From positions 32,001 through 96,000 of the IMG/VR virus record IMGVR_UViG_3300042555_002918: a stretch of 64,000 nt of DNA, one strand, 5' to 3'. Source of the stretch: a virus. The notes below the pieces were generated by a model. That model was not told the DNA's origin. It ran no database searches and saw only the letters and a list, made by a program, of their open reading frames with translations. Positions within the stretch are counted from its first letter, which is position 1. Each line of letters opens with the position of its first letter. Positions 6,955 through 61,338 of this stretch are shown one piece after another. The position numbers and the translations under genes are program-made.

Positions 6955-7707
6955 TTAGGCTTTGAAAGCACCGCGCCGCCGAAGGTGGTCGATTGCAAGC
7001 TTTCGTACATCTTCGTCCTCATCGTGAAGGCCTTTTTCGATGTGTCCAATGTGAACCTTGGGATGCTCCATTGCCGCGAACCTCACGAAGCTACTGTCAT
7101 CGTTAAGCGCCTGGTCAATGTGCCCTTCGTGGGAGTTAGGATGTCGAATTGCGTCCTCTCTTACGGACTCGTCCTCATGACGAAGCCCCTTAGAGATATT
7201 GTCATGGGTTGCGTTTGGATGCTCCATAGCGGCATTTGCTACCATTGAGTCTTTATCATCAAGGGCTTTGTCGATGTGATGAGGTTGAGCATTAGGATGA
7301 GAGACGGCCTTTAACCTTACCCAGTAGTCATTATCATTCAAAGCATGGTCGATATGATGATGCTGCACGTTAGGATGCTGAATTGCATTTGCTCTTACGT
7401 CAGAATCAGGATGCCTGAGTTTGTTGAAGATTGGGTCTCCTCCTTGGTCAGCATGGAAATGCCCACCGGCTCCCTTTAATTTCTCATACGCAGCATTTAC
7501 ATGCTTCATTGCTTCAGGACTTCCACCTAGGTCAGGATGATGTCGTTTTGATGCTGCCCGGAAGGCAGTCTTCAATTCATCCTCGGAGTGATCAGGTTCC
7601 AGACCAAGGACAGACCTTGCCTCATCGTGGCTCATACTCTCAACGAGGGAACGGAAATCCTTATCTATTTGCTCTTGTATTAAATCTTGAAGCGTCTTCT
7701 TGGACAT
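6955..7707 (-). CDS. Leader-bearing J-domain plus HEAT-like repeat protein
   Basis: MSKKTLQDLIQE leader; J-domain (ARSVLGL...HHPDLGG...VNAAYEKL); about 5 HPN/D..VR repeats; TATAAATA at 7754-7761. Confidence 0.85.
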   Translation of the reverse strand: MSKKTLQDLIQEQIDKDFRSLVESMSHDEARSVLGLEPDHSEDELKTAFRAASKRHHPDLGGSPEAMKHVNAAYEKLKGAGGHFHADQGGDPIFNKLRHPDSDVRANAIQHPNVQHHHIDHALNDNDYWVRLKAVSHPNAQPHHIDKALDDKDSMVANAAMEHPNATHDNISKGLRHEDESVREDAIRHPNSHEGHIDQALNDDSSFVRFAAMEHPKVHIGHIEKGLHDEDEDVRKLAIDHLRRRGAFKA

Positions 7708-9091: not shown

Positions 9092-9301
9092 ATGAATATG
9101 ACTAACCGACTCACGTTGAAAGAAGCAGCCCAAAAGTCAATTCAAACCAGCGACCTGGTAATGTTTTCCAAGGTAGTCGACCAGCTACGGTCTATGGGCT
9201 TTAACTACGAAGACACCCAAGCCTTCTTTTTTAAGACGACAGGGATCGATGCCAATACCTTTGAAGACCTGTGCTATGAGTCGGACAGGCAATCTCTCTA
9301 G
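9092..9301 (+). CDS. Hypothetical protein
   Basis: GGAGG SD; 69 aa. Confidence 0.6.
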   Translation: MNMTNRLTLKEAAQKSIQTSDLVMFSKVVDQLRSMGFNYEDTQAFFFKTTGIDANTFEDLCYESDRQSL

Positions 9302-9741
9302 TTAGCCTTTAGGTGCTTCTTATATCCTTTCCAGAAAAGCTTTCCCTTCTCGCTTTGGTCACTTGATGGTTTAATCGCTAGCCCCTTCTCTCGGGCATGG
9401 TCATACATTGCCGTGGCGACCCCTCTTCGCTGCCACCCATAGTCAGTATGAAGCTTATGTGCCCGGAAACCCTTTCCCCTAGGGTCCTTGTGAAATATTG
9501 CAAATCCTATCCCATGCTGAGGCCCCATTCCCGCTGGGTGCTCCTTAGCATGTTTTACAATCTCACTCCTGGCATAGCTTGTGTCGTCGGTTGAGGCGTC
9601 GGGATGGTAGGCTACTACCATATGGGCTTTTCTGCCTCGGTCAGATGGGTGGTCAATCTCCTGCATGTGGAGAACGGTACCGCTTGGGAGCTTCTCAGGC
9701 AGCCCAAGGCGCTCAACTATGAATTGTAAGAAGGTCTTCAT
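9298..9741 (-). CDS. GNAT acetyltransferase with T4-like capsid-targeting leader
   Basis: MKTFLQFIVE start; acetyl-CoA motif WQRRGVATAMY; QSEKGKLFW; GATAAATA at 9751-9758. Confidence 0.8.
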   Translation of the reverse strand: MKTFLQFIVERLGLPEKLPSGTVLHMQEIDHPSDRGRKAHMVVAYHPDASTDDTSYARSEIVKHAKEHPAGMGPQHGIGFAIFHKDPRGKGFRAHKLHTDYGWQRRGVATAMYDHAREKGLAIKPSSDQSEKGKLFWKGYKKHLKAN

Positions 9742-11991: not shown

Positions 11992-12022
11992 AGAGGGCTA
12001 TTTATAGAGAGCCGATTCTCAT

Positions 12023-12603: not shown

Positions 12604-13212
12604 TTATTTGGGGAAATATATCCCGATGCCTTCAGCGATGATGTCCTGTTCCGACACGCTGTCTATGGTGAGGCTCTCGTTAACATTGCCCGAGCGAGCG
12701 TTTATCTTATTTAAAAGATTCTTAGCTGCGCCTAAAAGCTTTGGATGAGCTTTATCAAGAATTTGCAACGTCTCCCCTTTCTCTTTGAAATACGTCTTAG
12801 AGAACTTAGGGTCGTGCTTTGCAATAGAATGACTGTTCGAGATAAGGTCCGCAGCTTTCACTGTATGAGCGATGTGACTCCCAGACTTTATCTTGTCATT
12901 ATAGGCGGCTTTCCGCGTTGCCCTATTTCCATCTACCCCAGGCTTACCCCTGTCCGTTAAGGTTTCAACATCGTCCGCAACTCGCTTCCCGAAATGATGA
13001 TGAATCTCATCATAGGTCGTAGGGGTGTCTTCTAAGGTATCATGGAGCCATGCTACGGCCTTGGCGTGCTCAGTTTCCTGTGGAGTATCCGCCATGGACA
13101 TTGCAGCAACGTCCCGTAGGTGATGCCAGTAGGGTTCCCCGGTGTACTTTCTCTTTTGTTCCCCGTGACGCTCGATAGCAAACTGACGGGCTCTTTTTAC
13201 CAAGTCTGACAT
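12604..13212 (-). CDS. HD-domain hydrolase, RelA/SpoT hydrolase (small alarmone hydrolase)-like
   Basis: H..QKRKYTGEPYWHH, AWLHDTLEDT, FGKRVA..V..LTD, VKAADLISN; CATAAATA at 13238-13245. Confidence 0.85.
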   Translation of the reverse strand: MSDLVKRARQFAIERHGEQKRKYTGEPYWHHLRDVAAMSMADTPQETEHAKAVAWLHDTLEDTPTTYDEIHHHFGKRVADDVETLTDRGKPGVDGNRATRKAAYNDKIKSGSHIAHTVKAADLISNSHSIAKHDPKFSKTYFKEKGETLQILDKAHPKLLGAAKNLLNKINARSGNVNESLTIDSVSEQDIIAEGIGIYFPK

Positions 13213-16011: not shown

Positions 16012-17472
16012 TTACTTCTTAGCTCTCTGCCCAGTGGAGATGCCGCGAAATGCGGCATAGGCCCTATTGGAGAGGCGTGCATGACGGGACCTCTTATCCC
16101 CAAGCTCATGGTATCGTGTGTACTCGGGCGTCCCTGGCTTTGCGCCATCGAGCTTGTCCATTTCCCGACCGAGTGAATCGGCTATCTCACTGTGTCGCTG
16201 ATGGACGCTGTAGAGCTTATCCCTAAGGCCGCTTGCCGAACCTGGGTCAGCCGTACCTATTGATTTCCCCGTCGTATAAGAGGGGTGTGAGAGAAAAGAG
16301 GAGTTTCCGTACCAGGCTTCTTTAAGAGCGCCCTTATCGGTTAGGAACTTCTCAACTCGCGTGAGGTGTTGAGAAACGTGACGCCGTCCAGTGCGCTTAT
16401 CCTTGATGGTGTATTTGAAATCTTTGCCTGGATCGGCTTTGGGTCTGGCCTCAATTTCATAATCGGGATGGTCAAATCGGTACACGCCACTAAGTCCATC
16501 TTTTGTCTGGGCTGGGATCTGTTCCGAAAAGCCTAACTTTTTAAGCCGTGCTTTGTAGTTTTCCTCGATGAGGGACTCGGTACCTTCGGAGACGGTACCC
16601 TTAGCGTGCTTTTTCACAAGGTCAGATGCCCACGAGACAACCTTCTTGGGAAAGAACTCGGGGTTATCAAATCCGACTCGGTCAGTGTGGGAGTAATGGA
16701 CGGGATAGTCCGATCTCCAATCGTCCGAGAGGTGATAGAAGGAGTGGTTATCCTTAAGCCGGGTCACGTGAGAGAGGGTGTGCTTACCCTTAGTGCCAAG
16801 CTTTACCTTTTTGAAATCCTTAGACGGAAAAGGCTCATGCTCGGATTCCGCAGCCTCACTCAGGCCGCCGTATTGGCTTGCAGCCCGCTTGGCCTTTTCG
16901 ATCTGGTCTTGGGCTTTCTCCTCTGCGTCCTGGTGAGGTCTAACTGAGGCATAACGACTGAGGTTATGTTTGAATTTTTTGAATTGCTTATCAAACTCTT
17001 CCTCATTACCCGCTTCCTTTGCGCGACCGCCCTTGAGCATGTTTTTCATGCTGTTTCTCATGGTCTTTTGCATGATTCGGTTTAACTTGGTGATCTTTGA
17101 GTCACCGATCTGCTCTTGAAGGTGAGTATCGATAGCTTCAGTGATAATGTCACCTTCGCTCTTCTTCGTAGGCACAGAAACGCCCTCTTCAATCTTGTGA
17201 AACTTCTTAACAGCCGCTACGGCCTCGTCATGTGTGTTAAATTCGCCCAGGCGACGGGTAACATAGTGTGAGATGCCATGTTTGCCTTTTCGCTTAGAGA
17301 CGGCGTAGGCATGGTGGCCCTCTCCCTTGTCGGCCATGGTGGTGACATCCACTCGTGGGATGACGTCAACGTGTCCTACAAGGTCCCCGGCCTCTTTCCC
17401 CTTCATGAGAATGGTACGATTGCCGTGAGCTTTGATCTGATTGATGCCCTCTGCGAGTGTCTGCTTTGCCAT
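16012..17472 (-). CDS. Multi-module putative internal head polyprotein
   Basis: 486 aa, K/H-rich; internal leader copy KKSEGDIITEAIDTHLQE; many L/I/V-x-E sites; TATAAATA at 17480-17487. Confidence 0.75.
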   Translation of the reverse strand: MAKQTLAEGINQIKAHGNRTILMKGKEAGDLVGHVDVIPRVDVTTMADKGEGHHAYAVSKRKGKHGISHYVTRRLGEFNTHDEAVAAVKKFHKIEEGVSVPTKKSEGDIITEAIDTHLQEQIGDSKITKLNRIMQKTMRNSMKNMLKGGRAKEAGNEEEFDKQFKKFKHNLSRYASVRPHQDAEEKAQDQIEKAKRAASQYGGLSEAAESEHEPFPSKDFKKVKLGTKGKHTLSHVTRLKDNHSFYHLSDDWRSDYPVHYSHTDRVGFDNPEFFPKKVVSWASDLVKKHAKGTVSEGTESLIEENYKARLKKLGFSEQIPAQTKDGLSGVYRFDHPDYEIEARPKADPGKDFKYTIKDKRTGRRHVSQHLTRVEKFLTDKGALKEAWYGNSSFLSHPSYTTGKSIGTADPGSASGLRDKLYSVHQRHSEIADSLGREMDKLDGAKPGTPEYTRYHELGDKRSRHARLSNRAYAAFRGISTGQRAKK

Positions 17473-17658
17473 AGAGGTCTATTTATAAAGCCCTCTTTGC
17501 CCTGAGCGACCTTTGCAATTTGACGTTTAGCAAATGTACCCACTGTCCCCCTTTGGGTGCATTTGCTCAGTGTGTACGACTAGCGAGAGCGCTCTTTCCC
17601 TACGGAGATCTGTGATTTACGGAATGTAGAAAAGGTCAAATTGGAGGGATCACTAAAG

Positions 17659-17693
17659 GGTAATGCTCTAGCCTTGCCCAGTTTTCGTATCGT
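17659..17693 (+). promoter_or_regulatory. GGTAATGC-N21-TATCGT promoter
   Basis: 8 nt before the methylase ATG. Confidence 0.7.
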
Positions 17694-17701
17694 TTATCGA
17701 T

Positions 17702-18697
17702 ATGAAAGACCAAATCCTGATTGGCGATGCCTTAGAGATCTTAAAGACCCTACCAGACGGCATCATTAACACCTGTGTTACGTCTCCACCTTATTTTGGC
17801 CTCCGGGACTATGGCGTTGATGGTCAAATAGGATTGGAGCAAGGCCCAGAGCAGTTCATTCAAAAATTGGTAGAGGTGTTTCGTGAGGTCCGTCGTGTTC
17901 TAAGGGACGATGGGACACTGTGGGTCAACATCGGGGATAGTTATGCAACGATGCAGCGCAGTGGAAAAAAAGAATCTCCAGGGGTTGGAGCCAAACAAGC
18001 GATGCCTCCCATTAGAACAAAAATTAGGTGGGGGAAGGGTGGCGGTACAAATTTCTGGTGGCGTATTCCAACTGAAAAGTACGGGGATTTAAAACCCAAA
18101 GACCTCATAGGAATCCCTTGGATGCTTGCCTTTGCGCTTCGTGCGGATGGCTGGCACTTAAGGCAAGACACCATCTGGCATAAGCCAAACTCAATGCCTG
18201 AGAGTGTTAAAGACCGCTGCACCAAGGCGCATGAGTACATATTTCTACTAAGCAAATCTCCAAAGTATTACTTTGATAGCGAAGCTATACAAGAGCCGTC
18301 CGTTTCCACTCATCCTTCAGGTAATGGGTTTAAGAGAGAATGTCGGCTTTCGTACAAAGATAAAAATGGCGCAAGAGGAAATGATCAGCCATGGCAAGTA
18401 AAGCCTACTCGTAATCGCCGCTCGGTGTGGAGCGTAAATACAAAACCTTTCAAGGAGGCACATTTTGCAACATTTCCGGAGAAGCTAGTAGAGCCTTGTA
18501 TTCTAGCAGGCTCCCCGAAGGGTGGCTTGGTGCTTGATCCCTTTTTTGGGGCGGGGACTACGGGACTTGTAGCAAAGAAGCTTGGGCGAAATTACCTCGG
18601 TGTAGAGATCAATCCAAAGTACGCACAAATTGCAAGTGAGAGAATTGACAAATGGTTAATCTCAAACGTCTTGCCGGTAGATCACATTTTTGAATGA
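17702..18697 (+). CDS. DNA methyltransferase, N6/N4 family (beta class, SPPY)
   Basis: VTSPPY, W.KPN.MPES, HFATFP, VLDPFFGAGTT motifs. Confidence 0.93.
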   Translation: MKDQILIGDALEILKTLPDGIINTCVTSPPYFGLRDYGVDGQIGLEQGPEQFIQKLVEVFREVRRVLRDDGTLWVNIGDSYATMQRSGKKESPGVGAKQAMPPIRTKIRWGKGGGTNFWWRIPTEKYGDLKPKDLIGIPWMLAFALRADGWHLRQDTIWHKPNSMPESVKDRCTKAHEYIFLLSKSPKYYFDSEAIQEPSVSTHPSGNGFKRECRLSYKDKNGARGNDQPWQVKPTRNRRSVWSVNTKPFKEAHFATFPEKLVEPCILAGSPKGGLVLDPFFGAGTTGLVAKKLGRNYLGVEINPKYAQIASERIDKWLISNVLPVDHIFE

Positions 18698-18795
18698 TAA
18701 CTCATTGGACAGCGGGGCGAGCCCATCGAGCACTGGTCGCGGAATGTAGAAAAGGTCAAGTTTGTCGAAGGATTAGGGACTTTCGTATCTACCCT

Positions 18796-19116
18796 TTAAG
18801 GCTTGATTGCTTGTGCGTGGGGCAATACTCGATTTTGATGGCGGGTGATTTTAGCCGCACCTATTCGGTGGTGAAACCTGATAGCGGCCAATGCCTCGTC
18901 TTCTGTGTCGTAACTCCCTTTATGAACACTAATGTCATCATCTGTCACGGAAGAGTGAAATTTGCCGTTTAACTGAGTGTATGAACCAAGAAGTTTCCCT
19001 TTAGTCTCAACATCCACTGAGCTACCCCTATGAACAAGGTCCATAGGAGTCTTTTGCTCAATGAGATGAGCATCAATCTCTTCCGTGATAATGTCTTGTT
19101 CGGTCTTCTTGCTCAT
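18796..19116 (-). CDS. Leader-bearing small protein
   Basis: MSKKTEQDIITEEIDAHLIE; TATAAATA at 19125-19132. Confidence 0.75.
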   Translation of the reverse strand: MSKKTEQDIITEEIDAHLIEQKTPMDLVHRGSSVDVETKGKLLGSYTQLNGKFHSSVTDDDISVHKGSYDTEDEALAAIRFHHRIGAAKITRHQNRVLPHAQAIKP

Positions 19117-19200
19117 AGAGAGTCTATTTATAGAGAGTGAGAAGGAGCGGTGTTAAGCAGTTACATGGGCTTATGCCCCTAGAAAGTGCTTCGGGGTGAG

Positions 19201-19227
19201 GGTATAATTATGGTATAATTATGGTAT
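19201..19227 (+). repeat. 11-bp tandem repeat containing TATAAT
   Basis: GGTATAATTAT x2 plus GGTAT immediately before the brnT-like ATG. Confidence 0.7.
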
Positions 19228-19402
19228 GGCGTTTGAGTTCGACCCCGCTGCTGTCATTTATGGCGAGGAGAGATTCCTCCCTATTGGTAAGGTCGGACCG
19301 TTTTACTGGACAGATGTTATCACTTACCGTTTCGGTAAGGTGAGATTTATATCGGTTAGGAGATCACGTGACACAGAGAAAAAGCTCCACCAAAGCACTT
19401 AA
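19226..19402 (+). pseudogene. brnT: BrnT-family toxin with in-frame internal deletion (58 aa)
   Basis: Hand translation: MAFEFDP-AAVIYGEERFLPIGKVGPFYWTDVITYRFGKVRFISVRRSRDTEKKLHQST; lacks the K...N..KHG..F segment. Confidence 0.7.
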
Positions 19403-19634
19403 GCCCATTACGGCAAAAGAGTTTGATGAAAAGTTTGACGCCGGAGAGGACGTCTCGGAACACATTCAGTGGGACAAGGCCGTTCGGCATGAGCCAAACA
19501 AGGTAAGACGGGTCAACATCGATTTCCCTGAGTGGATGATTAGAGAGCTTGACGTAAAGGCGGATCGTCTTGGGATCGCCAGACAGTCACTTGTAAAGAT
19601 GTGGGTAGCTGAGAAGTTAAAGGCGGAGAAGTGA
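19368..19634 (+). CDS. brnA: BrnA/CopG-family antitoxin
   Basis: AKEFDEKFDAGEDV...RVNIDFPEWMI..LD..A.RLGI.RQSLVKMW. Confidence 0.85.
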   Translation: MTQRKSSTKALKPITAKEFDEKFDAGEDVSEHIQWDKAVRHEPNKVRRVNIDFPEWMIRELDVKADRLGIARQSLVKMWVAEKLKAEK

Positions 19635-19644
19635 GCCTTGTAAA

Positions 19645-20238
19645 CTAATCCCTTCTAGCTGCCGCTCGAACTGCCCAGTGTGGGTCCTTAGCAGCTTTTT
19701 CTAAGTGTGATGGTTTGGCGCTTGGATTCTCTGCCGCTCCCATACGGACCATGTAGTCATTATCTGAGAGAGCCTTCTCAATGTGGTGGTCTTTAGCAAC
19801 AGGGTTCTTTGCCGCAGCGTGTCTTACTACCCAATCCTCATCGGAAAGTCCTTTTTCAATGTGGTGGTCTTGAGCCTTTGGGTGACGGGCTGCCATGAAG
19901 CGTCGCTCTGAATCGTGGTCACCGATTGCACGGTCTAAATCGATCTCAAACCCGTGGTTATCAACCTTAGTTGAAATGGATTCGGCGATGATATCTTGTT
20001 CGGTCTTTTTCCCCTCTAAGAGCTTAGCTATCTCTTGGTCGGTATGCCCGGATTGTTTCAAAGACTTTACCGCGTGCTCCCTTCCTTTATGTCGGGCGAT
20101 GAGCTTTGCTGCTTCAGACTTTGACATGCCACCAAGGAGCGATGCTCCGGCGTCACTCATTTTGAGTGTTGATGCTGCAATTTTTAACTGATGCTTAACT
20201 GCATCTTCAGTAAGCGATAGTGTGGTCTTTTTGGACAT
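19645..20238 (-). CDS. Leader-bearing protein with C-terminal HEAT-like repeats
   Basis: MSKKTTLSLTE; internal KKTEQDIIAESI; D.D..VR..AA.NP repeats. Confidence 0.75.
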   Translation of the reverse strand: MSKKTTLSLTEDAVKHQLKIAASTLKMSDAGASLLGGMSKSEAAKLIARHKGREHAVKSLKQSGHTDQEIAKLLEGKKTEQDIIAESISTKVDNHGFEIDLDRAIGDHDSERRFMAARHPKAQDHHIEKGLSDEDWVVRHAAAKNPVAKDHHIEKALSDNDYMVRMGAAENPSAKPSHLEKAAKDPHWAVRAAARRD

Positions 20239-20241
20239 ACC

Positions 20242-20484
20242 CTATTCCTTTTCGCGCTCTACTTTATGCTCAGGTACTTTTATAGACTCGTATTCACCGA
20301 CGTCCACAACGTAGAAGGGGCTTCCGTGGCGGTAGCCTTGGTCATATCGGACAACTTTGCCTGATGTCATTTTGCCCTTATGCGGCACTCTCACCTTGGT
20401 TCCTTCTGGGTGACCACGTAAAGCCTCTCCAAGGTAGGTCTCAATTGACTCAGCAATAAGGTCCTGTTCTGACTTTTTGGACAT
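20242..20484 (-). CDS. Leader-bearing small SH3-like protein
   Basis: MSKKSEQDLIAESIETYLGE then GTKVRV...GKVV...YVVD. Confidence 0.7.
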   Translation of the reverse strand: MSKKSEQDLIAESIETYLGEALRGHPEGTKVRVPHKGKMTSGKVVRYDQGYRHGSPFYVVDVGEYESIKVPEHKVEREKE

Positions 20485-20524
20485 AGTGAGCCCTTTCATT
20501 GGGGGATGATTCTTAAATTACTTG

Positions 20525-21232
20525 CTACTTAGTCTCATCGTCCAGAAAGTCAGAGAAGTGACCCCAACCGTCCTTTTTAAGAAGACCTCTTTCGTAGGCC
20601 GCTTTTCTAAGTCCGCTCTGTACCCGTTGAGATGCCCAGTGGGTTTTATGAGCTTTGCCTGCTGGTCCGCTACTTTCTCGGTACGCGCTTCGCTGCTCTT
20701 CAGACCATTCACCTGGGTGTGCAGGAAGGTCTCTCGTTCTTGTCTGATGCGCCGCAATCAATTCCTGATATTTCTTCTCGGACCTTTGATGAATGTCATC
20801 AACGCGCTTTACTCTCTGCTTAAGCTCCTCGGGGCTAATCTTCATGCCATGCTTATATGCAAGCTGCTCAGGAGCCCACGCTTTCTTAGCCCTGGCCTTG
20901 TCGTCAGAGATAGCCTCACTCACACCGCCGTATCGTAAGGCTGCATGTTTGGCCTTTATCCCCTCCAACTCGGCCTTCTCCTCAGCGGCCCTATCTGCCA
21001 TGAGCACCGTCTGGAGATCGTGGTGACGCCCAAACTTGCTAGCGTTCTTTTCAAATCCTGCCTTGTCGCCCTTAGCCTTTGCGGCCTCGGCGGCCTTGTC
21101 GCTCTTTGCGATGCTTTTATCCGCTTTTTGAATAATGCGATTTATCTTGGCGAGCTTTGAGTCACCAATCTTTTCCTGAAGGTCAGAGTCGATAGCTTCA
21201 GCGATTAACTCTTGTTCGGTTTTCTTGGTCAT
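20525..21232 (-). CDS. Leader-bearing two-module protein
   Basis: MTKKTEQELIAEAIDSDLQE; one module shared with 16012..17472; EAISDDKA shared with 21245..22033. Confidence 0.75.
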   Translation of the reverse strand: MTKKTEQELIAEAIDSDLQEKIGDSKLAKINRIIQKADKSIAKSDKAAEAAKAKGDKAGFEKNASKFGRHHDLQTVLMADRAAEEKAELEGIKAKHAALRYGGVSEAISDDKARAKKAWAPEQLAYKHGMKISPEELKQRVKRVDDIHQRSEKKYQELIAAHQTRTRDLPAHPGEWSEEQRSAYRESSGPAGKAHKTHWASQRVQSGLRKAAYERGLLKKDGWGHFSDFLDDETK

Positions 21233-21244
21233 AATTATCTCAAA

Positions 21245-22033
21245 TTAAAACCCGCCATTGTTGTCCCAGTCATCCTTTGCACTGTGCATCCCGTGAGCAA
21301 ACGCTCGAAGGCGCGAGGAAAGGTGTTTGTAGTGCTCCTTTTTGGCAGGGTCAGATTCTTTTGATGATCGCTCTTGGTAGGTATCAGAGTGGCTGTTGAG
21401 CTTGTCGATGTAGCGGGTGTGATGGAAGTCATCACCTTTGGACTGTTTGAGCATCTTCTTTCCAAACTCATACCCTAAGTCCATAGGGCGGCTAACGCGC
21501 TTAGAGAACCCTTCAGGCTCACCTGTAATGTGCCCAAGTTTTCCAGGGAGCTTATGCTTTGCTGCGTAGTCTCTGACTTTACCGTAGACGTTTACGGCCT
21601 TGGCCACATTAGCGTCTTTTTGGTCTTCAAGGTCGTCAAACTCTTTATGGCTAATGTAGGGGTCATCCTTTTGAGCTTGGGTGAGGTCTCGGTTCTTATC
21701 CTGGAGGTCAAGGTACGCCTTTGTAAAGACGCGCTCTGCCTTCTTGGCTTTGTCGTCAGAGATAGCCTCTTTGAGACTCTTTTTAATTTCAATGGTGGGC
21801 TTTTTGTCCTCTCCACCGCGCATAAAAGGCTCTTTGGTCCGATGCTTCCAATCAAAATCAAGTTGCTTCAGGCGTTTCTTTGCATCCTCTTCGGAGGAAT
21901 GTGAGCTTTCAAGCTTCCCGTCTATGAACACTTGATGAACCTCTCTAGCTTCGGCGATTAGTTCACGCACGAGGGAGGTCTCAGTGAGGTCGATGGCTTC
22001 CGCGATTAACTCTTGTTCGGTTTTCTTGCTCAT
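21245..22033 (-). CDS. Leader-bearing multi-module protein
   Basis: MSKKTEQELIAEAIDLTE...LIAE...LKEAISDDKA; TATAAATA at 22041-22048. Confidence 0.75.
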   Translation of the reverse strand: MSKKTEQELIAEAIDLTETSLVRELIAEAREVHQVFIDGKLESSHSSEEDAKKRLKQLDFDWKHRTKEPFMRGGEDKKPTIEIKKSLKEAISDDKAKKAERVFTKAYLDLQDKNRDLTQAQKDDPYISHKEFDDLEDQKDANVAKAVNVYGKVRDYAAKHKLPGKLGHITGEPEGFSKRVSRPMDLGYEFGKKMLKQSKGDDFHHTRYIDKLNSHSDTYQERSSKESDPAKKEHYKHLSSRLRAFAHGMHSAKDDWDNNGGF

Positions 22034-22078
22034 AGAGGTCTATTTATAGAGAGTTACAAGGTGCTATCTCGATTTGAC

Positions 22079-22949: not shown

Positions 22950-23279
22950 TTACTTCCCTTTAAGGCGCGCCGCGTCTCGGTCCGCTCGAATCTCACTCTT
23001 AAACTTCTTGGTGAAGGACTGATTGAAAGTCTGGAGGCGCTTAAAGGCGATATCAAAGTTCTGCTTGTGAGCTTTGAAGTCGGGCGAGTTTCTTACATGG
23101 TCAGGGGTGAGTCCGTTCTCTAACTTTGGGAACTTCGACAGTTCAGCTTTATGTCGAGAGACGTCCGCCTCAAGTGAATCTCTCGCCTGCTTCGCCCGTG
23201 CGTAGAGGTCATCTTGGCTTTCTGTCACGAATGACCTAATAGCCTCTGCGATAATCTCCCTGGCATCTTTTTTGCTCAT
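22950..23279 (-). CDS. Leader-bearing small helical protein
   Basis: MSKKDAREIIAEAIRSFVTE; GLTPDHVR.SPDF motif; CTAAATA at 23286-23292. Confidence 0.75.
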   Translation of the reverse strand: MSKKDAREIIAEAIRSFVTESQDDLYARAKQARDSLEADVSRHKAELSKFPKLENGLTPDHVRNSPDFKAHKQNFDIAFKRLQTFNQSFTKKFKSEIRADRDAARLKGK

Positions 23280-23882: not shown

Positions 23883-24309
23883 GCCTTAACACTGGTGGTT
23901 CATAGTGAGAGGTTTCAAGTCCAAGGATAGCTCTTACCTCCTCTATCGTTTGAGCCTTAGCTATTTGTTCTAGGAGATGTTTTAACTGTTTAATCTCTTC
24001 CGCCTTTGAAATCTTTCTCTCTAAGCTTGGTGTGGTTGGGTCAGCTTCCCAAACATAGGCAATCTTTCCCGTGACTCGACATGGACGCTTTGCAGTGGGC
24101 TTTATGAGCCCGTCCTCTTCAAGGGCTGAGAAGCGACACCGAAGCATGAGATATGACCCCGTTGTGCGTTCATAGTGAGCCTCTATTTCCCTCTGTGTGG
24201 ATGGACCTAACTCTTTTAAGAGCTTGTACACGATCCCTTTTTGAGTCTGGAGGAACCCGTTTGATACAAGGTCCTCGTAGGCTTCGTTGCTTGTGTCTTT
24301 TCGTCCCAT
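23848..24309 (-). CDS. Winged-helix DNA-binding protein
   Basis: TS.EAY...VY..L...GP.T..EI...RFS.L...GLI....R.C.VTG; GGTAATGC-N21-TAAGGT (24317-24351) 7 nt before ATG. Confidence 0.7.
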   Translation of the reverse strand: MGRKDTSNEAYEDLVSNGFLQTQKGIVYKLLKELGPSTQREIEAHYERTTGSYLMLRCRFSALEEDGLIKPTAKRPCRVTGKIAYVWEADPTTPSLERKISKAEEIKQLKHLLEQIAKAQTIEEVRAILGLETSHYEPPVLRLNPFHSENEGS

Positions 24310-24963: not shown

Positions 24964-26253
24964 GTGGCGTCTGACCTTGTAAGAGGTCAAATGCAGTTCA
25001 CGTTTGCAAAATGGGTGAGACGGTGGCAGCTACTAGTGGTGGTTGTGTTACTTTTCACACTCACCTCTTCTGCTCGGTGTGAGAGCGTTACATTTAGAGT
25101 ACGAGAGCTCGGGCGCGTTAGGGCCTCTTTGTCAGTAAAAAGAGACTTCCCTGGGCTTAATCTTTCTAAAGACTTCTTCCAAGGTCAGGTACGGTTCACC
25201 TCTCATAGGTTTCCCCTTGCAGCATCAAAGGATTTAGAGACTTTGACACTTACCTTCCCTGGGAAGGCCACAGGGAGTGAAGGGAGAAGACAGAGGCTCT
25301 ATACGGTTAAGGTAACGGGGAAAAGGGTAAAGGTTACAAGTATCCCTCGCTCATATCTACCTCCCGCCTCGTGCGCTGAAGCTCATGAGAGTGGGATAGA
25401 GGAACACAGACCAACTGTTAAGGAATTTTCAGATGTTCAGGCGAAAGAGACCGTACGAGTCATTTCGTTAAGAGCTTTTACAGACCCCGAGTGGCAAAGT
25501 ATCCATGGAGGGAACTCCTCATCTGATGTAGCAAGCGCTATCAATGTGGCAGAAAGCATTTACAACAGGCAGCTTGGGATTCGGTTTAAGGTGTTAAGCA
25601 TTACCTCTCTTCTTGATTCTTTCTTAAACTCTTCCCCCTCTCCCCTTCTCAATGAGTTTAGAGTGAGTCCATCAGCAGAAGGGGAAGCAAACCTAAAGGC
25701 TCTCTTTACAGGGAAAGACATGGACGGAAGCACCATTGGAATAGCCTATGTGGGAGTTGTCTGCTACGCGCCAGAGTACTCATTCAGCGTTACTCAAAGC
25801 TATGGGGCACTTTCAGGAGCCATATTCGCTCATGAGGTTGGACATAACCTTGGCGCCTCTCACGACTTCTATAACCCCGATACGCTCATGTACCCGTCCA
25901 TTGGGACTAACCAATCAGGCTTTAGCCCTTTAAGCCTAGGACAGATTGAAAGCCACCTAAGCTACTTTGGGGAGTGCTTGGGGAGAGACTCAATGACTCC
26001 CCTTCTCTCTGGTGCAAAGCTTAGCGTGAATAGGGGGAAAAAGAGCTTTATCCTTACCCTTCGCTCAACTCGGGGGACGCTTTTGGATGGGGTCTTAGTG
26101 AGATACGCCGTAAATGGGAAAACGGCATCAAAGGTAACTTCTTCTCGTGGGTCTATCGTAATCCCAGTTAAAAGTAAGGGCGTCTTTACAATAGCCGCTC
26201 ATGTCGCAACCGAAACCACAATCACCGCTCGGGCTCGGATACGGTTCAAATAG
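24964..26253 (+). CDS. Secreted zinc metalloprotease, M12B/reprolysin-like
   Basis: HEVGHNLGASHD, Met-turn LMYP, GIAYVGVVC, N-terminal signal/TM segment. Confidence 0.88.
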   Translation: MASDLVRGQMQFTFAKWVRRWQLLVVVVLLFTLTSSARCESVTFRVRELGRVRASLSVKRDFPGLNLSKDFFQGQVRFTSHRFPLAASKDLETLTLTFPGKATGSEGRRQRLYTVKVTGKRVKVTSIPRSYLPPASCAEAHESGIEEHRPTVKEFSDVQAKETVRVISLRAFTDPEWQSIHGGNSSSDVASAINVAESIYNRQLGIRFKVLSITSLLDSFLNSSPSPLLNEFRVSPSAEGEANLKALFTGKDMDGSTIGIAYVGVVCYAPEYSFSVTQSYGALSGAIFAHEVGHNLGASHDFYNPDTLMYPSIGTNQSGFSPLSLGQIESHLSYFGECLGRDSMTPLLSGAKLSVNRGKKSFILTLRSTRGTLLDGVLVRYAVNGKTASKVTSSRGSIVIPVKSKGVFTIAAHVATETTITARARIRFK

Positions 26254-26849: not shown

Positions 26850-28202
26850 CTATTCGGGGTTGACTTGTCTTTTCGTCATTGCGGAAAGCGCAGCCTTACG
26901 GACATATGTTTTTTTATCAGCAAGCGCTTTAGTAATGTGCTCGTGTGTAGCATTTGGATGTGAAACGGCTTTAGCCCTTACATAATCGTCTTCATCAGCA
27001 AGCGCTTTAGTAATGTGCTCGTGTGTAGCATTTGGATGTGAAACGGCTTTAGCCCTTACATAGTAATCTTCATCAGCAAGCGCTTTAGTAATGTGCTCGT
27101 GTGTAGCATTTGGATGTGAAACGGCGCTCCCCCTGATTGGCGCACTTCCATCCGCAAGCGCTTTAGTAATGTGCTCGTATGTAGCATTTGGGTGGGAAAT
27201 TGCGGCATCTCTTACCGGCGGCTGTGCATCAGCAAGCGCTTTAGTAATGTGCTCGTGTGTAGCATTTGGATGACGAATTGCATTGACCCTTACGAGGGGA
27301 TTTCCATCAGCAAGCGCTTTAGTAATGTGCTCGTGTGTAGCATTTGGGTGGGAAATTGCGGCAACTCTAACATCTATCGAATGATGACCAAGGGCAGCAC
27401 CAATTTCATGGGACCTAACGTGAGCAACTGTACGCCCCGAGCCATCATCGTAAATATTTTCATTCTTATGATAAGCCCCCATCGGCTGATGATGATTATG
27501 ATGGGTATCGAGAATGTGCTTGACCTGATCTTCGAATCCTTTTGGTGCATCACCATATATACTTGGCTCAGGGACCAAGATAGAGTTTTGGTTCTCATCA
27601 CTGTGTTTTTTTATAGCAATCCGAGCAAGTGGCTTTTGAGGATGCCCCTGGTCATCAGCATGAACAAGATAGGCAACGTGCGTGCCGTGCTTTAGGTCTT
27701 GTTGAAGATTATGCCTGTTTTTACCACTCTCAAAGTTCATACACGAGCTGTTTTCCCAAGAGTGTCCACAGCTCGTCATTCCTGCGACATCATGTGGGTG
27801 TCTGGAAATGAGGACTCTGAGGTTTTGTTTGTTTTTCTGAGCACGAACAGGATCCTCAGCGAACTTCTTTACAAGGTTTGGCTCAGCCTTAGTCTGACCG
27901 AGAGCCTTACCAATCCGCACGTCTCGTCCGTGCTTATCCTTTGCTAAACCTGCCTTGTAGTCGTGAACCTTATATCCGTGCTTTGAAAGGTGTCCTTCTA
28001 TCGCTTCCTTCGCCGGGGAATCCGCATGGGCGGTTGAGTCAAAGTCAAAGTATCGCCGTTGGTGGGTTTCTTTATCCGTATCGGGGCCGCCAAAAAGCTT
28101 GTCACTAAACTCATTATTTCCCTTCCTCCAGGCATTTACGTCGGCCTTTTGGTCATTCCTAAGGGCTTCTTGGAGCATTTTGAATTGCTTAAAGGTCAGC
28201 AT
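26850..28202 (-). CDS. HEAT-like repeat protein with capsid-targeting-like leader
   Basis: MLTFKQFKMLQE; SCM motif; six 26-aa HPNATHEHITKALAD repeats; TATAAATA at 28211-28218. Confidence 0.85.
   Translation of the reverse strand: MLTFKQFKMLQEALRNDQKADVNAWRKGNNEFSDKLFGGPDTDKETHQRRYFDFDSTAHADSPAKEAIEGHLSKHGYKVHDYKAGLAKDKHGRDVRIGKALGQTKAEPNLVKKFAEDPVRAQKNKQNLRVLISRHPHDVAGMTSCGHSWENSSCMNFESGKNRHNLQQDLKHGTHVAYLVHADDQGHPQKPLARIAIKKHSDENQNSILVPEPSIYGDAPKGFEDQVKHILDTHHNHHQPMGAYHKNENIYDDGSGRTVAHVRSHEIGAALGHHSIDVRVAAISHPNATHEHITKALADGNPLVRVNAIRHPNATHEHITKALADAQPPVRDAAISHPNATYEHITKALADGSAPIRGSAVSHPNATHEHITKALADEDYYVRAKAVSHPNATHEHITKALADEDDYVRAKAVSHPNATHEHITKALADKKTYVRKAALSAMTKRQVNPE
26921..27360 (-). 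repeat. 78-bp coding tandem repeat, 6 copies
   Basis: CAAGCGCTTTAGTAATGTGCTCGT at 26921, 26999, 27077, 27155, 27233, 27311. Confidence 0.9.
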
Positions 28203-28234
28203 AGACTGACTATTTATAGCTCATCATGGGAATA

Positions 28235-47158: not shown

Positions 47159-48199
47159 CTATCCTTCCCATGCCTGAGGGTCGATCTTTTGTCGGTTGGC
47201 CTTATACTCCGCCGCCAAATGTTCCATTCGGTCCTTTATTTGGTCAGGGCTACTCAGCTTTTGAATCTCTTTGATGTGGTCGATCAACCAGCTTATAGAA
47301 ACCTCAGACTCAGGAAAGGTGACAACTGTCGATAAAGAAGCGACTCGGCGCGACTTTTGGTAAACCCCGTTAATTCCCCAACCTGCTGTTCGCATAAACA
47401 CGTTTCGATAAAGGGTCAGCTTCATACCATCGGCATGAGGCAGAGGAATAAAAAGCCAATCATCTCTAAACTCAGCATGAAGCTCCTTTTGGAATGAGAG
47501 GATGGCGTCCTTCTTTGCAAACTTTGACGGCTTACCGTCTTTCTTTTTCCCAAGCTTTTTAGCCGGGAACAATGCCTCGGGATTAGTGAGTACGCTGAAA
47601 TCATGCTCAAACCTATAATTCTGCTGTGCAAGCTTAATCTTCCGCCGGTTATGGAGAATGGAAGTTGCGACATACATGTTTATGCCGAAGGCTCCATGGG
47701 AAAGTCCGTGGTTGTGTCTTTCTACTGCGCTCACGTTGATGCGCAAGTCAAGGACAGTGCTGCGCGTATGATTCGCAAACTCAGCACTTAAAGAGGCATA
47801 GGTGTCCTCAACGTTTTCCTTTATTTGAACTGAAAACTCTTGGCCGAAGATAGCTTTGAAGTGATTGGTAAATGCGTGGATGTTCAGCACCTGCTTAACC
47901 TTTCCAAGAGCGGACACAAGGAAAATTCGGTCCTGCTCTCGGCTCCTGTGATACTGAGCCATTCTATCCTCAGGGCTTACGTGAGTTCCGCCCAAAATGT
48001 TGCTCAACTTGTCGTAGGCAACATTGATCTTCTTCATGATGGAGACGTCACCGCCCTTGTCTGGGTGATGAAGGATAGCCATCTTTTTATATGCGGCTTT
48101 GAGCTCGTCTGCCGTATAGCTCCCAGTAAGGCCCAGAAGATGCTGAGCATCTTGTACAGTCATTTGGCTTTCGTTAAGGTACTCTTGAAAAGTCTTCAT
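47159..48199 (-). CDS. J-domain protein with T4-like capsid-targeting leader
   Basis: MKTFQEYLNE; LLGL...LKAAYKK.A..HHPDKGG...KKIN.AYDKL; TTAAG-N15-GACGATA upstream (48228-48254). Confidence 0.85.
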   Translation of the reverse strand: MKTFQEYLNESQMTVQDAQHLLGLTGSYTADELKAAYKKMAILHHPDKGGDVSIMKKINVAYDKLSNILGGTHVSPEDRMAQYHRSREQDRIFLVSALGKVKQVLNIHAFTNHFKAIFGQEFSVQIKENVEDTYASLSAEFANHTRSTVLDLRINVSAVERHNHGLSHGAFGINMYVATSILHNRRKIKLAQQNYRFEHDFSVLTNPEALFPAKKLGKKKDGKPSKFAKKDAILSFQKELHAEFRDDWLFIPLPHADGMKLTLYRNVFMRTAGWGINGVYQKSRRVASLSTVVTFPESEVSISWLIDHIKEIQKLSSPDQIKDRMEHLAAEYKANRQKIDPQAWEG

Positions 48200-59417: not shown

Positions 59418-60332
59418 CTATCGGTCCTTAAGGTCCATTAGAATCTGCTTAGGGTCCTCAGGCTCATTTGGCACAACGTGTGCGTGCCAAACGTGGATGG
59501 GCTCCATGTTTGAAAAATGGGAGCCTGGCGGAAGGATTGTCGGCGTTGGATGTACTTTCAGTGTCGTGTGCCTTGGAAGTAAGTACTCATGTTCGTTGCC
59601 GACCGCAGAGTGTTCTCCGACGTACAATCCTCTCTGTCCCTTTTTAAGATGAATATGAAGCACGTGGTTGGCGCGGGCATCACCCTCTTCCGAAAGAGGC
59701 TTGGAAAACACCACAGCCGTCTTTTTGTTGATAGACGTGGATGTATAGGCTGGGAGGTGAATTTTGTTCTCTGAATTTAGAGCGGCTTTCCGCCCAGGGT
59801 GAAACCCCACTCCTGAATAGACGTGGAGGTCGTGTTTAAGTCTGTGGTGTTTTACGGCCTCATCCAAGTGCGGGATGCTGTGCTCCGCTATATTATCCCC
59901 AGGGTGAGTCTTTGTGATATGGTGCTGTAGAAGAGCCCTATTAAGACGACTGCTTTCCTCGGTATACTTCTTAACTGCTTTTCGGTGCCCATCTGAAAAA
60001 TCATGATGCGGTTGTAGTCCAGCCAAGGTTTCATGGACATTGGAGTAGGTTTCTCCTATGTGCGAATTGTCGTTTTGGCTCCTCCATTCGGCGTACTTGA
60101 CTGCGCGGGCGGCCTGAGCACTCTCATCTACCTTTTTAAGAGGCTTTTTATTGGCTGAAGAGTGGCCGCCGTGGCTATCGACAACGGTGGGGGTGCCTTT
60201 ATAGGTGGGGGGCCTATCCTGAGCGTGACTTCCGTGCGTATCGACCACAACGGCAGTTCCCCTATAGCGGGTAACCGACTTTTGTCCGCCTAATCCGGCA
60301 ATAGACTTCAGATATTGAAGAAACGTTTTCAT
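59418..60332 (-). CDS. ADP-ribosyltransferase (Alt/Mod/VIP2-like) with capsid-targeting leader
   Basis: MKTFLQYL; YT..S..LN..L; HVYSG; YTSTS; EHEYLLPR; CTAAATA at 60358-60364. Confidence 0.85.
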   Translation of the reverse strand: MKTFLQYLKSIAGLGGQKSVTRYRGTAVVVDTHGSHAQDRPPTYKGTPTVVDSHGGHSSANKKPLKKVDESAQAARAVKYAEWRSQNDNSHIGETYSNVHETLAGLQPHHDFSDGHRKAVKKYTEESSRLNRALLQHHITKTHPGDNIAEHSIPHLDEAVKHHRLKHDLHVYSGVGFHPGRKAALNSENKIHLPAYTSTSINKKTAVVFSKPLSEEGDARANHVLHIHLKKGQRGLYVGEHSAVGNEHEYLLPRHTTLKVHPTPTILPPGSHFSNMEPIHVWHAHVVPNEPEDPKQILMDLKDR

Positions 60333-60369
60333 AGCGGGGTACCACAAACTCCCCCACTATTTAGGTGCG

Positions 60370-61338
60370 TTACTTAACCCCAACCGATGTCTTTTTCTTA
60401 GAAGCACCCGTGTCTTTTCGCTTTGGGACTTTGGCCTTGCTGGTTGAATCATTTAACTCGCTCGGTATGACATGGGCGTGCCAGATGTAGGTCTTGTAGT
60501 CATTACCGGCGTGCCCTCCTTCAGGAACGACTGAGGGTTTAGGGTGAACCTTGAGTGTTGTATGTCGAGGAAGGATGTACTCGTACTCATTTTGGTCATA
60601 ATTAGAGTGTTTTCCGACGTAGAGGCCCTTCTGTCCCTTTTTTAGATGGATGTGCAGAACGTGATTAACTGGTTCATGATTGTATTTGTCGGTCGTTCCT
60701 TCGATAGCGTGGGAAAAGACAGTAGCAGTCTTTTTGCAAATCGAAGTAGATGTATATGCGGGTAGGTGAAGATTGCCCTTATGACACATTTCACACTTTT
60801 CTCCTGGATGAAAGCCTACCCCAGAGTAGACATGAAGATCGTGCTTCAGTTTGTTGTGACCAATAGCCTGGTCTAATTTATGGATGTTGTGTTCATCCAC
60901 TTTTGGAGGGTCGTCATATCCGGCCTCGTAATGTTTGAGAAGGGTGCGATTAACATGACGACTATAGGTCGTGTACATTTCAACAGCGTCAGAATGATCG
61001 CGAATATTGCTTATTGGATATTTCTTATCCAAGTGAGTTTCAATTTCGTCATGATTATTTCCAAGGTGGTGATTGTCGTTATTTGACTCCCATTGGGCGA
61101 AATGTTTCCATTTCCTAGCCTTTTTAAATGACCACGCCTCATCGAGTTTCTGTTTTTTTGCCAGAGTCGATGAAAGTGACTGAGATGCCGAGACATCTGT
61201 CGCCTGCGCTATGCTCTTTTTTCTGAGAGCCTTATGTTTTGAATGGGACCCGTGGGTATCAACAACAACCGGGGTGCCCGTAAAGCGGGGCACACCTCTC
61301 AGGATTTTCTGAGAGATGAATTGAAGAAATGTTTTCAT
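60370..61338 (-). CDS. ADP-ribosyltransferase paralogue with capsid-targeting leader
   Basis: MKTFLQFI; HVYSG; YTSTS; EYEYILPR; CATAAATA at 61366-61373. Confidence 0.85.
   Translation of the reverse strand: MKTFLQFISQKILRGVPRFTGTPVVVDTHGSHSKHKALRKKSIAQATDVSASQSLSSTLAKKQKLDEAWSFKKARKWKHFAQWESNNDNHHLGNNHDEIETHLDKKYPISNIRDHSDAVEMYTTYSRHVNRTLLKHYEAGYDDPPKVDEHNIHKLDQAIGHNKLKHDLHVYSGVGFHPGEKCEMCHKGNLHLPAYTSTSICKKTATVFSHAIEGTTDKYNHEPVNHVLHIHLKKGQKGLYVGKHSNYDQNEYEYILPRHTTLKVHPKPSVVPEGGHAGNDYKTYIWHAHVIPSELNDSTSKAKVPKRKDTGASKKKTSVGVK

Follow-up and report, generated by a model that had tools for sequence, protein, structure and literature searches.

The window analysed here is a 64,000-nucleotide (nt) stretch of viral DNA, bases 32001-96000 of the 145,388-bp IMG/VR virus record IMGVR_UViG_3300042555_002918, which has direct terminal repeats. 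On its minus strand lies a group of open reading frames (ORFs, named below by their first window coordinate) whose products carry a short leader peptide and are built of small modules joined at sites of the form [LIV]xE. It is probable that these ORFs are late precursors of capsid-internal cargo of the T4 internal-protein kind, in which several cargos are chained together, separated by a protease, and recombined at their joints. The source genome is that of a complete, T4-superfamily myovirus, with T4-like baseplate proteins gp6, gp7, and gp5 matched by PHROG; among cultured phages, Methylophilales phage Melnitz and Pelagibacter phage Mosig come closest, with only ~35% identity in the gp6 homolog. 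The predicted parts of the locus, with residues in amino acids (aa), are as follows.

22041..22048 (-): late promoter box TATAAATA, 7 nt before the ATG of ORF 21245; heads the run 21245 > 20525 > 20242 > 19645
21245..22033 (-): ORF 21245, putative precursor, 262 aa; leader aa 1-12 (22033-21998)
21997-21941 (-): ORF 21245, leader extension with further sites LTE18, IAE28, ARE31
21940-21767 (-): ORF 21245, module C, aa 32-89; ends KSLKE
21766-21248 (-): ORF 21245, module D, aa 90-262; starts AISDDKA
20525..21232 (-): ORF 20525, putative precursor, 235 aa; leader aa 1-12 (21232-21197)
21196-20915 (-): ORF 20525, module M2b, aa 13-106; ends GGVSE
20914-20528 (-): ORF 20525, module B, aa 107-235; starts AISDDKA
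20242..20484 (-): ORF 20242, putative single-cargo leader protein, 80 aa; MSKKSEQDLIAE plus a 68-aa cargo (the mechanical ORF call begins 5 codons farther upstream than the start used)
19645..20238 (-): ORF 19645, putative two-cargo precursor, 197 aa; N-terminal leader variant MSKKTTLSLTE, aa 1-11
20205-20011 (-): ORF 19645, module M6, aa 12-76
20010-19981 (-): ORF 19645, internal full leader KKTEQDIIAE, aa 77-86
19980-19648 (-): ORF 19645, HEAT/LRV-like repeat module, aa 87-197
19125..19132 (-): late promoter box TATAAATA, 8 nt before the ATG of ORF 18796
18796..19116 (-): ORF 18796, putative single-cargo leader protein, 106 aa; leader and second site LIE20, then M1-like domain
17480..17487 (-): late promoter box TATAAATA, 7 nt before the ATG of ORF 16012
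16012..17472 (-): ORF 16012, putative five-cargo precursor, 486 aa; predicted propeptide MAKQTLAE, aa 1-8
17448-17185 (-): ORF 16012, module M1, aa 9-96
17184-17137 (-): ORF 16012, linker and internal leader, aa 97-112
17136-16855 (-): ORF 16012, module M2, aa 113-206; then linker AAESE
16839-16585 (-): ORF 16012, module M3, aa 212-296; then linker GTESLIE
16563-16318 (-): ORF 16012, module M4, aa 304-385
16317-16015 (-): ORF 16012, module M5, aa 386-486
22950..23279 (-): ORF 22950, putative single-cargo leader protein, 109 aa; MSKKDAREIIAE↓AIRSFVTE↓ plus a basic cargo, phrog_7560 (arrows here and below mark predicted cuts)

Modules, Predicted Folds, and Placement of [LIV]xE Sites

When the 486-aa product of ORF 16012 was searched with phmmer against 1.84 billion representative proteins, 22 matches were obtained, and these form five blocks (~aa 4-100, 102-211, 204-296, 297-380, and 383-478), in agreement with the proposal of an earlier note on this DNA that homology boundaries coincide with some of the cleavage-like sites. 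That note had also described the ORF as divided by xxE sites, of which it listed eight; the division was borne out, and ten [LIV]xE sites exist (LAE8, LGE77, IEE96, ITE112, LQE120, LSE206, VSE296, LIE303, IEE304, and LKE385). Homolog-informed AlphaFold2 modeling produced five confident domains with a mean predicted local distance difference test score (pLDDT) of 80, yet a predicted template modeling score (pTM) of 0.31, a combination that indicates confident domains without a fixed mutual arrangement. The segments with pLDDT below 50 are aa 1-7, 98-104, 201-212, 296-303, and 387-408. Structure prediction, proposed earlier as a check, thus gave independent domains with the junction xxE sites in low-confidence, unstructured linkers. 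In ORF 21245, LKE89↓AISDD similarly lies in a low-confidence linker (aa 87-97) that connects a small beta-alpha domain to a helical domain.

The sites are not placed at random. In ORF 16012, 7/10 lie at most 3 residues from the low-pLDDT linkers, which make up 18% of the chain, and every linker (5/5) holds an [LIV]xE (P ~3.5e-4 under random placement of ten sites); the other three are LGE77, which sits in a beta strand, and two leader sites, ITE112 and LQE120. When 36 related proteins were mapped into modules with jackhmmer, the motif was found in 19/19 inter-module junctions and 20/24 N-terminal segments, an outcome (39/43) reached by 0/5000 sets of random interior windows, and its density was 4.9 per 100 aa in junctions versus 0.17 in module interiors. 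The interiors of the window proteins contain 3 sites where 9.1 were expected from residue shuffles (P=0.01), and those of the full redundant set contain 7 where 27 were expected; within modules [LIV]xE is ~3-4 times rarer than expected. No depletion within modules was seen for the control motifs [LIV]xD, Ex[LIV], [LIV]xK, and [LIV]xQ, and none for [LIV]xE in 52 other long ORFs of the phage (358 sites versus 352 expected).

In the 36-protein map, each module comes with a site of its own in front: in every case LKE↓A, VLE↓S, or IHE↓A for M5 and L(I/L)E↓E or VLE↓E for M4, then L(T/S)E↓D or ISE↓D for M6 and ..E↓(A/S)(R/K)E↓V for C. In all junctions inspected, the module is bordered by a site whose P3 residue is L, I, or V; further x-x-E motifs, for instance ESE211 and ARE31, are present in a small number of linkers.

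Modules M2, M5, B, and D are long, helical, and rich in K and E. Pfam and PHROGs gave no family for ORFs 16012, 20525, and 21245 and only HEAT/LRV repeats for ORF 19645, and no peptidase domain was found in the module ORFs with Pfam. Foldseek searches of the 486-aa model against the PDB returned nothing at E<=0.001, and BFVD gave only two whole-chain matches with a template modeling (TM) score of ~0.1. A wide VIA-align search, in which modules other than M2 and M5 were barely tested and the model was larger than recommended, matched M2 and M5 to generic helical hairpins only, and for M3 the ESM Atlas yielded only unnamed viral clusters with scores <0.8. M3 (16585-16839; DDW..DYP...FDNPE(Y/F)FP) also occurs as a free-standing, leaderless protein of 68-95 aa in many metagenomic records and inside the 345-aa protein P0019, and is a widespread small domain.

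Module Shuffling and Recombination Joints

Protein and DNA comparison established that these are genuine modules reused in differing orders. The module reported as common to ORF 16012 (aa 102-211) and ORF 20525 (aa 2-111) is shared at 43% identity (E=1.6e-22; phmmer pair E=1.3e-12). The sequence EAISDDKA, which the earlier note took to open a module in two ORFs, is indeed present in both ORF 20525 (aa 106-113) and ORF 21245 (aa 89-96), with coding DNA 96% identical over 25 nt, but it is not the start of a shared module; the sequences following it are unrelated. In the related proteins P0025 and P0024, AISDDKA directly follows the N-terminal leader (LIAE↓AISDDKA) and is therefore a P1'-P7' leader tail. 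On this sequence evidence, AISDDKA in ORFs 20525 and 21245 is the joint at which a leader-bearing gene fused behind another module.

In metagenomic relatives the modules occur alone, behind their own leader, or reordered, in the following combinations (L009, L012, and L018 are related loci).

P0002: leader, M3, M4
P0004: M1, leader-like sequence, M5
P0005: M6, leader, M3, M5
P0003 (L012 4719-5951): M1, M6, leader, new module, M3, M4 stump
P0006: leader, X, M3, C, M4
P0007 (L009 10001-10900): other module, leader, C, M4
P0008: M1-like, M4
P0012: leader, X, M3, M6
P0026: leader, C, M1, another module
P0011: leader, M1
P0021: leader, M5
P0024 and P0025: leader, D
L012 4298 and L009 8706: leader, HEAT

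Module C is thus joined to M4 or M1 in P0006, P0007, and P0026, and in P0015 a B-like block stands before M1. These mosaic proteins were recovered repeatedly, on 2-8 contigs assembled independently (JGI, ENA, and Logan) and in several samples; the modules are shuffled between related phages. P0003 stops 18 residues into M4, while P0007 retains DISDDKA alone from module D (7 aa) together with the in-frame Met of an absorbed leader gene; these remnants look like snapshots of fusion and decay.

The joints are best seen in L018, the syntenic locus of a 154.6-kb close relative whose flanking DNA is 87-97% identical. Its ortholog of the 486-aa ORF has 310 aa, arranged as M1, leader, M3, and M5, and is without exactly M2 and M4. 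Its DNA aligns to ORF 16012 in three blocks (91%, 89%, and 94.5% identity) with breaks at aa 110/209 and 294/379, the first of which places the M2 insertion directly after the internal leader. Flanking M4 are two imperfect direct repeats, AAGGGTACCGTCTCCGAA (KGTVSE) and AAGGGCGCTCTTAAAGAA (KGALKE), which in L018 are collapsed to KGTLKE. The L018 ortholog of ORF 22950 has one extra module after LKE↓S. The stretch 19637-21992 is wholly replaced in L018, and upstream homology stops at 21993, the end of the promoter and leader cassette of ORF 21245; the corresponding cassette of ORF 18796 is 92% identical to cassettes heading other cargos in L009 and L012. Two distinct genes of L012 correspond to ORF 19645; their DNA matches overlap at aa 77-80, inside KKTE, and in L012 the leader and HEAT unit forms a separate gene with its own late promoter. 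The earlier proposal that shuffling occurs at leader-coding DNA is supported, as the computational checks put forward with it all turned out as it foresaw: between relatives, breakpoints fall within leader-coding DNA, at its end, or in cleavage-site linkers. Some joints, however, are linker repeats (KGTVSE/KGALKE) and not leaders.

Gene conversion among the leaders within the genome was considered and rejected, since 128 identical codons were observed against 119 expected from codon usage; exceptions are the pairs 20525/21245 and 18796/16012i, one with a 26-nt exact run, and other exact leader-DNA repeats are no longer than 14 nt. Leader codons being mostly unhomogenised within the genome, the leader appears to be kept mainly as a peptide, and exchanges probably use short homologies.

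The Leader Peptide

The 12-residue leader, with the motif KKTEQ(D/E)(L/I)I(A/T)E, is found in ORFs 16012, 18796, 19645, 20242, 20525, 21245, and 22950, all on the minus strand, and the cargos behind it are mutually unrelated in sequence. A profile hidden Markov model (HMM) built from seven leaders and searched against the genome gave seven strong matches (E 2.5e-10 to 2e-12) and weaker ones, confined to the locus part of the genome. The leader is N-terminal by this HMM in ORFs 18796, 20242, 20525, 21245, and 22950, and more weakly in ORFs 11473 and 6955. Full internal leaders (E ~1e-11 to 1e-12 each) stand at aa 102-124 of ORF 16012 and at aa 76-98 of ORF 19645, the latter corresponding to the second, mid-protein leader remarked on earlier. 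No ATG precedes the internal leaders of ORFs 16012 and 19645. A GTG with a preceding GAGGG sits just before the internal leader of ORF 16012; internal translation starts were rejected as a general explanation, as ORF 19645 is without a start codon at its internal leader.

Relatives of this locus were sought in several ways. Megablast of the locus against cultured phages and tblastn of ORF 20525 gave no match, and IMG/VR scans using ORFs 20525 and 16012 found no relatives; a degenerate leader DNA pattern matched 4 IMG/VR contigs, with one clear relative and two possible ones. ORF171c of Escherichia phage RB43 (L016 592-864), a cultured T4-type coliphage, is homologous to the ORF 22950 cargo (33% identity over aa 26-109) and has the N-terminus MLTFEQY but without a clean [LI]xE. 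As a lead only, this would mean that one cargo may ride different leader classes.

A second class of leaders (class A), near the T4 capsid targeting sequence (CTS), is present in the same phage beside the leaders described above (class B). Class-A leaders, among them MKTFLQFIVE, MLTFKQFKMLQE, MKTFQEYLNE, MKTFLQYL, MKTFLQFISQ, and IKTFKQFTSQE, were found at 9298-9741, 26850-28202, 47159-48199, 59418-60347, 60370-61338, and 61369-62109, all on the minus strand, and their cargos include two ADP-ribosyltransferases, one HEAT-repeat protein, and one weak HipA-like protein. ORF 6955-7707 (-) carries a class-B leader, then a DnaJ (J) domain with the HPD motif, then HEAT/LRV-like repeats like those that form the last module of ORF 19645. 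The HD_4-domain ORF 12604-13212 (-) is without an N-terminal leader; a leader-like tail, SVSEQDIIAEGIGIYFPK, comes right before its stop codon and is kept in L018 (15480-16088). T4 Alt and gp21 are processed at their C-termini, and the tail could likewise serve as a tag for targeting or cleavage; alternatively, it could be a scar left by a cargo since lost. L018 17210-17824, whose counterpart is absent from the studied genome, has a class-B leader near its N-terminus (…RRKSDQDIIAE, aa 12-22) before a cargo with a phosphoribosyltransferase-like motif.

Prohead Protease, Capsid Protein, and Late Promoter Boxes

The genome encodes a gp21-type prohead protease (Peptidase_S77, PF03420, 117.9 bits; full-record positions 107918-108364(-), in a gene at 107765-108499(-)), which starts MKLLQE... 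and has a site close to its own N-terminus. It also encodes a gp23-type capsid protein (BLASTP versus T4 gp23, 32% identity, E=1e-73), in which FITE63↓D aligns opposite T4 gp23 FLTE65↓A, that is, propeptide site ITE against LTE65. In T4, LTE65 is the point at which gp21 takes off the 65-residue propeptide of gp23. Because of this alignment the cleavage rule (L/I)-x-E is very probably valid in this phage, and the core head proteins very probably make use of the same protease specificity. The scaffold homolog holds 11 [LI]xE sites.

A reprolysin-like (M12B) zinc metalloprotease gene adjoins the cargo locus in all three relatives (24964-26253 (+); L009 4118-5365; L018 3859-5127). As the processing enzyme it is an unlikely candidate, having a hydrophobic, signal-like N-terminus and lying on the opposite strand.

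The T4 late promoter box TATAAATA occurs 17 times in the genome, against ~6 expected, and stands 7-8 nt before the ATG of ORFs 21245, 18796, and 16012. Seven boxes lie 6-8 nt before an ATG or GTG, including those of these three ORFs and ORF 11473 (window 22041-22048, 19125-19132, 17480-17487, 11999-12006, and 28211-28218; full-record 23899-23906 and 115326-115333), with no Shine-Dalgarno sequence between box and start in any of the seven. Late mRNAs from these boxes would be leaderless or nearly so, which is unusual among T4-type late genes. ORFs 20525, 20242, and 19645 follow 21245 without a box of their own. The leader ORFs are presumably expressed late.

The predicted mature modules have 58-173 aa and an isoelectric point (pI) of 8.0-9.9, with the exception of the HEAT-like module (pI 6.5), and leaders and most linkers are acidic (pI 4-5). 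For comparison, T4 ipII and ipIII start with MKTYQEFIAE and have a single [LI]xE each, at E10; the mature part of IPII and IPIII is basic (pI 9.6) and their leader has a pI of 4.85.

Proposed Mechanism and Alternatives

In the proposed mechanism, the acidic N-terminal leader (M-S/T-K-K-T-E-Q-D/E-L/I-I-A/T-E) would act as the T4 CTS does, taking the precursor into the prohead core, where the gp21-type serine protease would cut behind the Glu of [L/I/V]-x-E, both at the leader and in each of the linkers that separate modules. Cutting at all of these would release two to five basic polypeptides (58-173 aa) per precursor, which may stay with the DNA and presumably be injected. Leader and cleavage-site sequences would double as recombination joints at which modules could be gained, lost, and reordered in frame, and exchange between related phages would give a combinatorial cargo set. 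Leader targeting, internal-site cleavage, head retention, and injection are proposed here by analogy with T4, and analogy with T4 Ip1-3 and Alt likewise suggests that the modules might be effectors with an anti-defence or host-modifying role. It is as likely as not that this is a natural cargo polyprotein system of one lineage of T4-like phages, in which the prohead protease would also process concatenated injected proteins and the leader and site sequences would be in-frame recombination joints.

Several points weigh against capsid cargo chained in this manner. T4 gp21 leaves some LxE sites uncut. The phage is uncultured, and the cargo proteins are known here from their genes alone; none of Pfam, PHROGs, Foldseek, VIA-align, and ESM Atlas gave the modules a recognizable function, and the model of ORF 21245 is weak (pLDDT 59). 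The homolog set is small, with interrelated members, and since the sites were known when the module seeds were chosen, the interior depletion test is partly circular, a circularity that does not touch the linker test or the phmmer block ends. The class-B leader has in common with the T4 CTS (MKTYQEFIAE) the P4-P1 end alone (hydrophobic-I-A/T-E), and residues 4 and 7, the targeting determinants of the T4 CTS (PMC9026906), are unconserved in it.

The ORFs could instead encode head-packaged, multidomain "polyvalent" proteins trimmed at the N-terminal leader only, with internal motifs as fusion scars that are uncut or partly cut. Scars do exist, namely the remnants in P0007 and P0003, and undivided polyvalent virion proteins have been described (Iyer et al., PMC5512222). 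However, sites are kept at all 19 junctions, including joints not derived from leaders, and are avoided within modules; the internal leader after M6 is kept in four diverged sequences, and the junction sites lie in linkers predicted to be exposed and disordered. Trimming at the N-terminus only is therefore considered unlikely. Still less probable is that the upstream modules are long propeptides or scaffold-like parts of the core, cut and expelled in the style of T4 gp22 or SPN3US gp53/gp54, so that at most the last module stays in the head. The propeptides of SPN3US (111-254 aa) offer a precedent, being cut several times before they leave the head (PMC10052503), and the K/E-rich helices of M2, M5, B, and D, with only generic hairpin matches, would suit such a part; yet the same modules stand alone behind their own leader and at any chain position, including the last, and they are compact, confidently folded, and basic, like mature T4 internal proteins (IPs).

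It is very unlikely that these are non-capsid proteins whose N-terminus serves, for example, the translation of near-leaderless late mRNAs and whose mosaicism is ordinary domain shuffling of accessory proteins. With the ATG 6-8 nt after TATAAATA, the first codons could affect initiation, and mosaicism is common in phage proteins (PMC10684548), but initiation is irrelevant where the leader is internal or, once, C-terminal, the placement and avoidance of [LIV]xE fit a protease substrate, and the leader end is identical in form to the sites of the capsid protein and of T4. An artefact of assembly or gene calling, whether chimeric contigs at repeated leader DNA or frameshift-fused neighbours, can hardly be credited. 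Leader DNA is repeated in the genome, with the one 26-nt exact run, but other exact repeats are short, the fusions are in frame, the mosaic proteins recur on independently assembled contigs, and the genome record is complete with terminal repeats.

Relation to Known Systems

The internal proteins of T4 are the classic injected anti-restriction cargo, each with its own gene and a 10-residue targeting peptide. The candidate cargos described here resemble IPI, IPII, and IPIII in a short acidic N-terminal leader ending I-x-E, a gp21-type protease gene, late promoter boxes, small, basic, unrelated cargos (as predicted), avoidance of the cleavage motif inside them, and a hypervariable locus. They differ in having two to five cargos per ORF rather than one per gene, and in the class of leader (KKTEQDIIAE versus MKTYQEFIAE), which here is also internal, as a linker. 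IPs, and foreign proteins too, are brought into the T4 head by the 10-residue CTS, which gp21 then removes (PMC9026906, PMC3012670). The targets of Ip1, Ip2, and Ip3 are GmrSD type IV restriction enzymes, a different one being inhibited by each (PMC12373910). Hypervariability is described for IP loci, as are recombinogenic regulatory cassettes on their flanks (PMC2839356, citing Repoila 1994 and Comeau 2007). Shuffling at T-even IP loci and hyperplastic regions, as through promoter early stem-loop (PeSL) cassettes (Arbiol 2010, PMC2839356), is similar in that recombination occurs at short conserved elements flanking variable accessory genes; those cassettes, however, swap whole genes via intergenic promoter/stem-loop elements, whereas the joints here lie within coding sequence and give in-frame fusions. 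T4 Alt, a packaged and injected host-modifying ADP-ribosyltransferase, is gp21-processed at both ends, and the present genome has two ADP-ribosyltransferase genes with T4-like MKTF leaders; Alt is a single enzyme, outside the mosaic class-B set.

Polyvalent proteins carry many effector domains in one injected polypeptide, and proteolytic release of the domains has been proposed (Iyer, Burroughs, Anand, de Souza, and Aravind, 2017, PMC5512222). The likeness lies in at least two unrelated domains per polypeptide, presumed travel with the DNA, and an architecture variable among orthologs. Polyvalent proteins, however, are large, with recognizable enzymatic or conflict domains and usually an embedded peptidase; the modules here are tiny and uncharacterised, no peptidase domain was found in them, and the prohead protease would cut in trans. 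The gp21-related proteases of giant phages cut after Glu at several sites per substrate (PMC9026906, PMC10052503), and several after-Glu sites per protein (predicted ones here) are shared with the substrates phiKZ gp175 and SPN3US gp245. The giant-phage motif is A/S/G-x-E, in contrast to L, I, or V at P3 of the junction sites here, and the parts cleaved there are long propeptides that mostly leave the head, with combinatorial module reuse not described. In the full-text literature, coverage of which was incomplete, no description was found of chained CTS cargos with internal leaders, nor of coding-sequence joints at protease sites.

If true, the proposed system would let one phage co-package several counter-defence proteins in a fixed ratio, and a single in-frame recombination would give a new cargo combination; anti-host modules, like beads on a string, could be exchanged, gained, or lost with no need for new promoters or targeting signals, in a prokaryotic-virus counterpart of exon shuffling plus polyprotein processing. 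Avoidance of [LIV]xE within modules would then serve as a sequence signature in the search for capsid cargo of uncultured phages, and the arrangement would suggest a natural design for the engineered T4 CTS delivery platform, in which one CTS carries several payloads with gp21-cleavable linkers between them. Small, basic, and uncharacterised, the modules form a pool of plausible anti-defence candidates.

Neighboring Genes

Two features on the opposite strand lie among the leader genes but outside the cargo system.

17702..18697 (+): N6/N4 DNA methyltransferase, inserted among the leader genes
19226..19634 (+): BrnT-like toxin (fragment) and CopG-type antitoxin pair, embedded in the locus

The region of the BrnT-like/CopG-type pair is 97% identical in L018. 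The methyltransferase together with ORF 18796 (17643-19152) is replaced in L018 (11110-11740) by a class-A leader gene, MKTFLQFITE..., a cassette replacement within one hyperplastic region.

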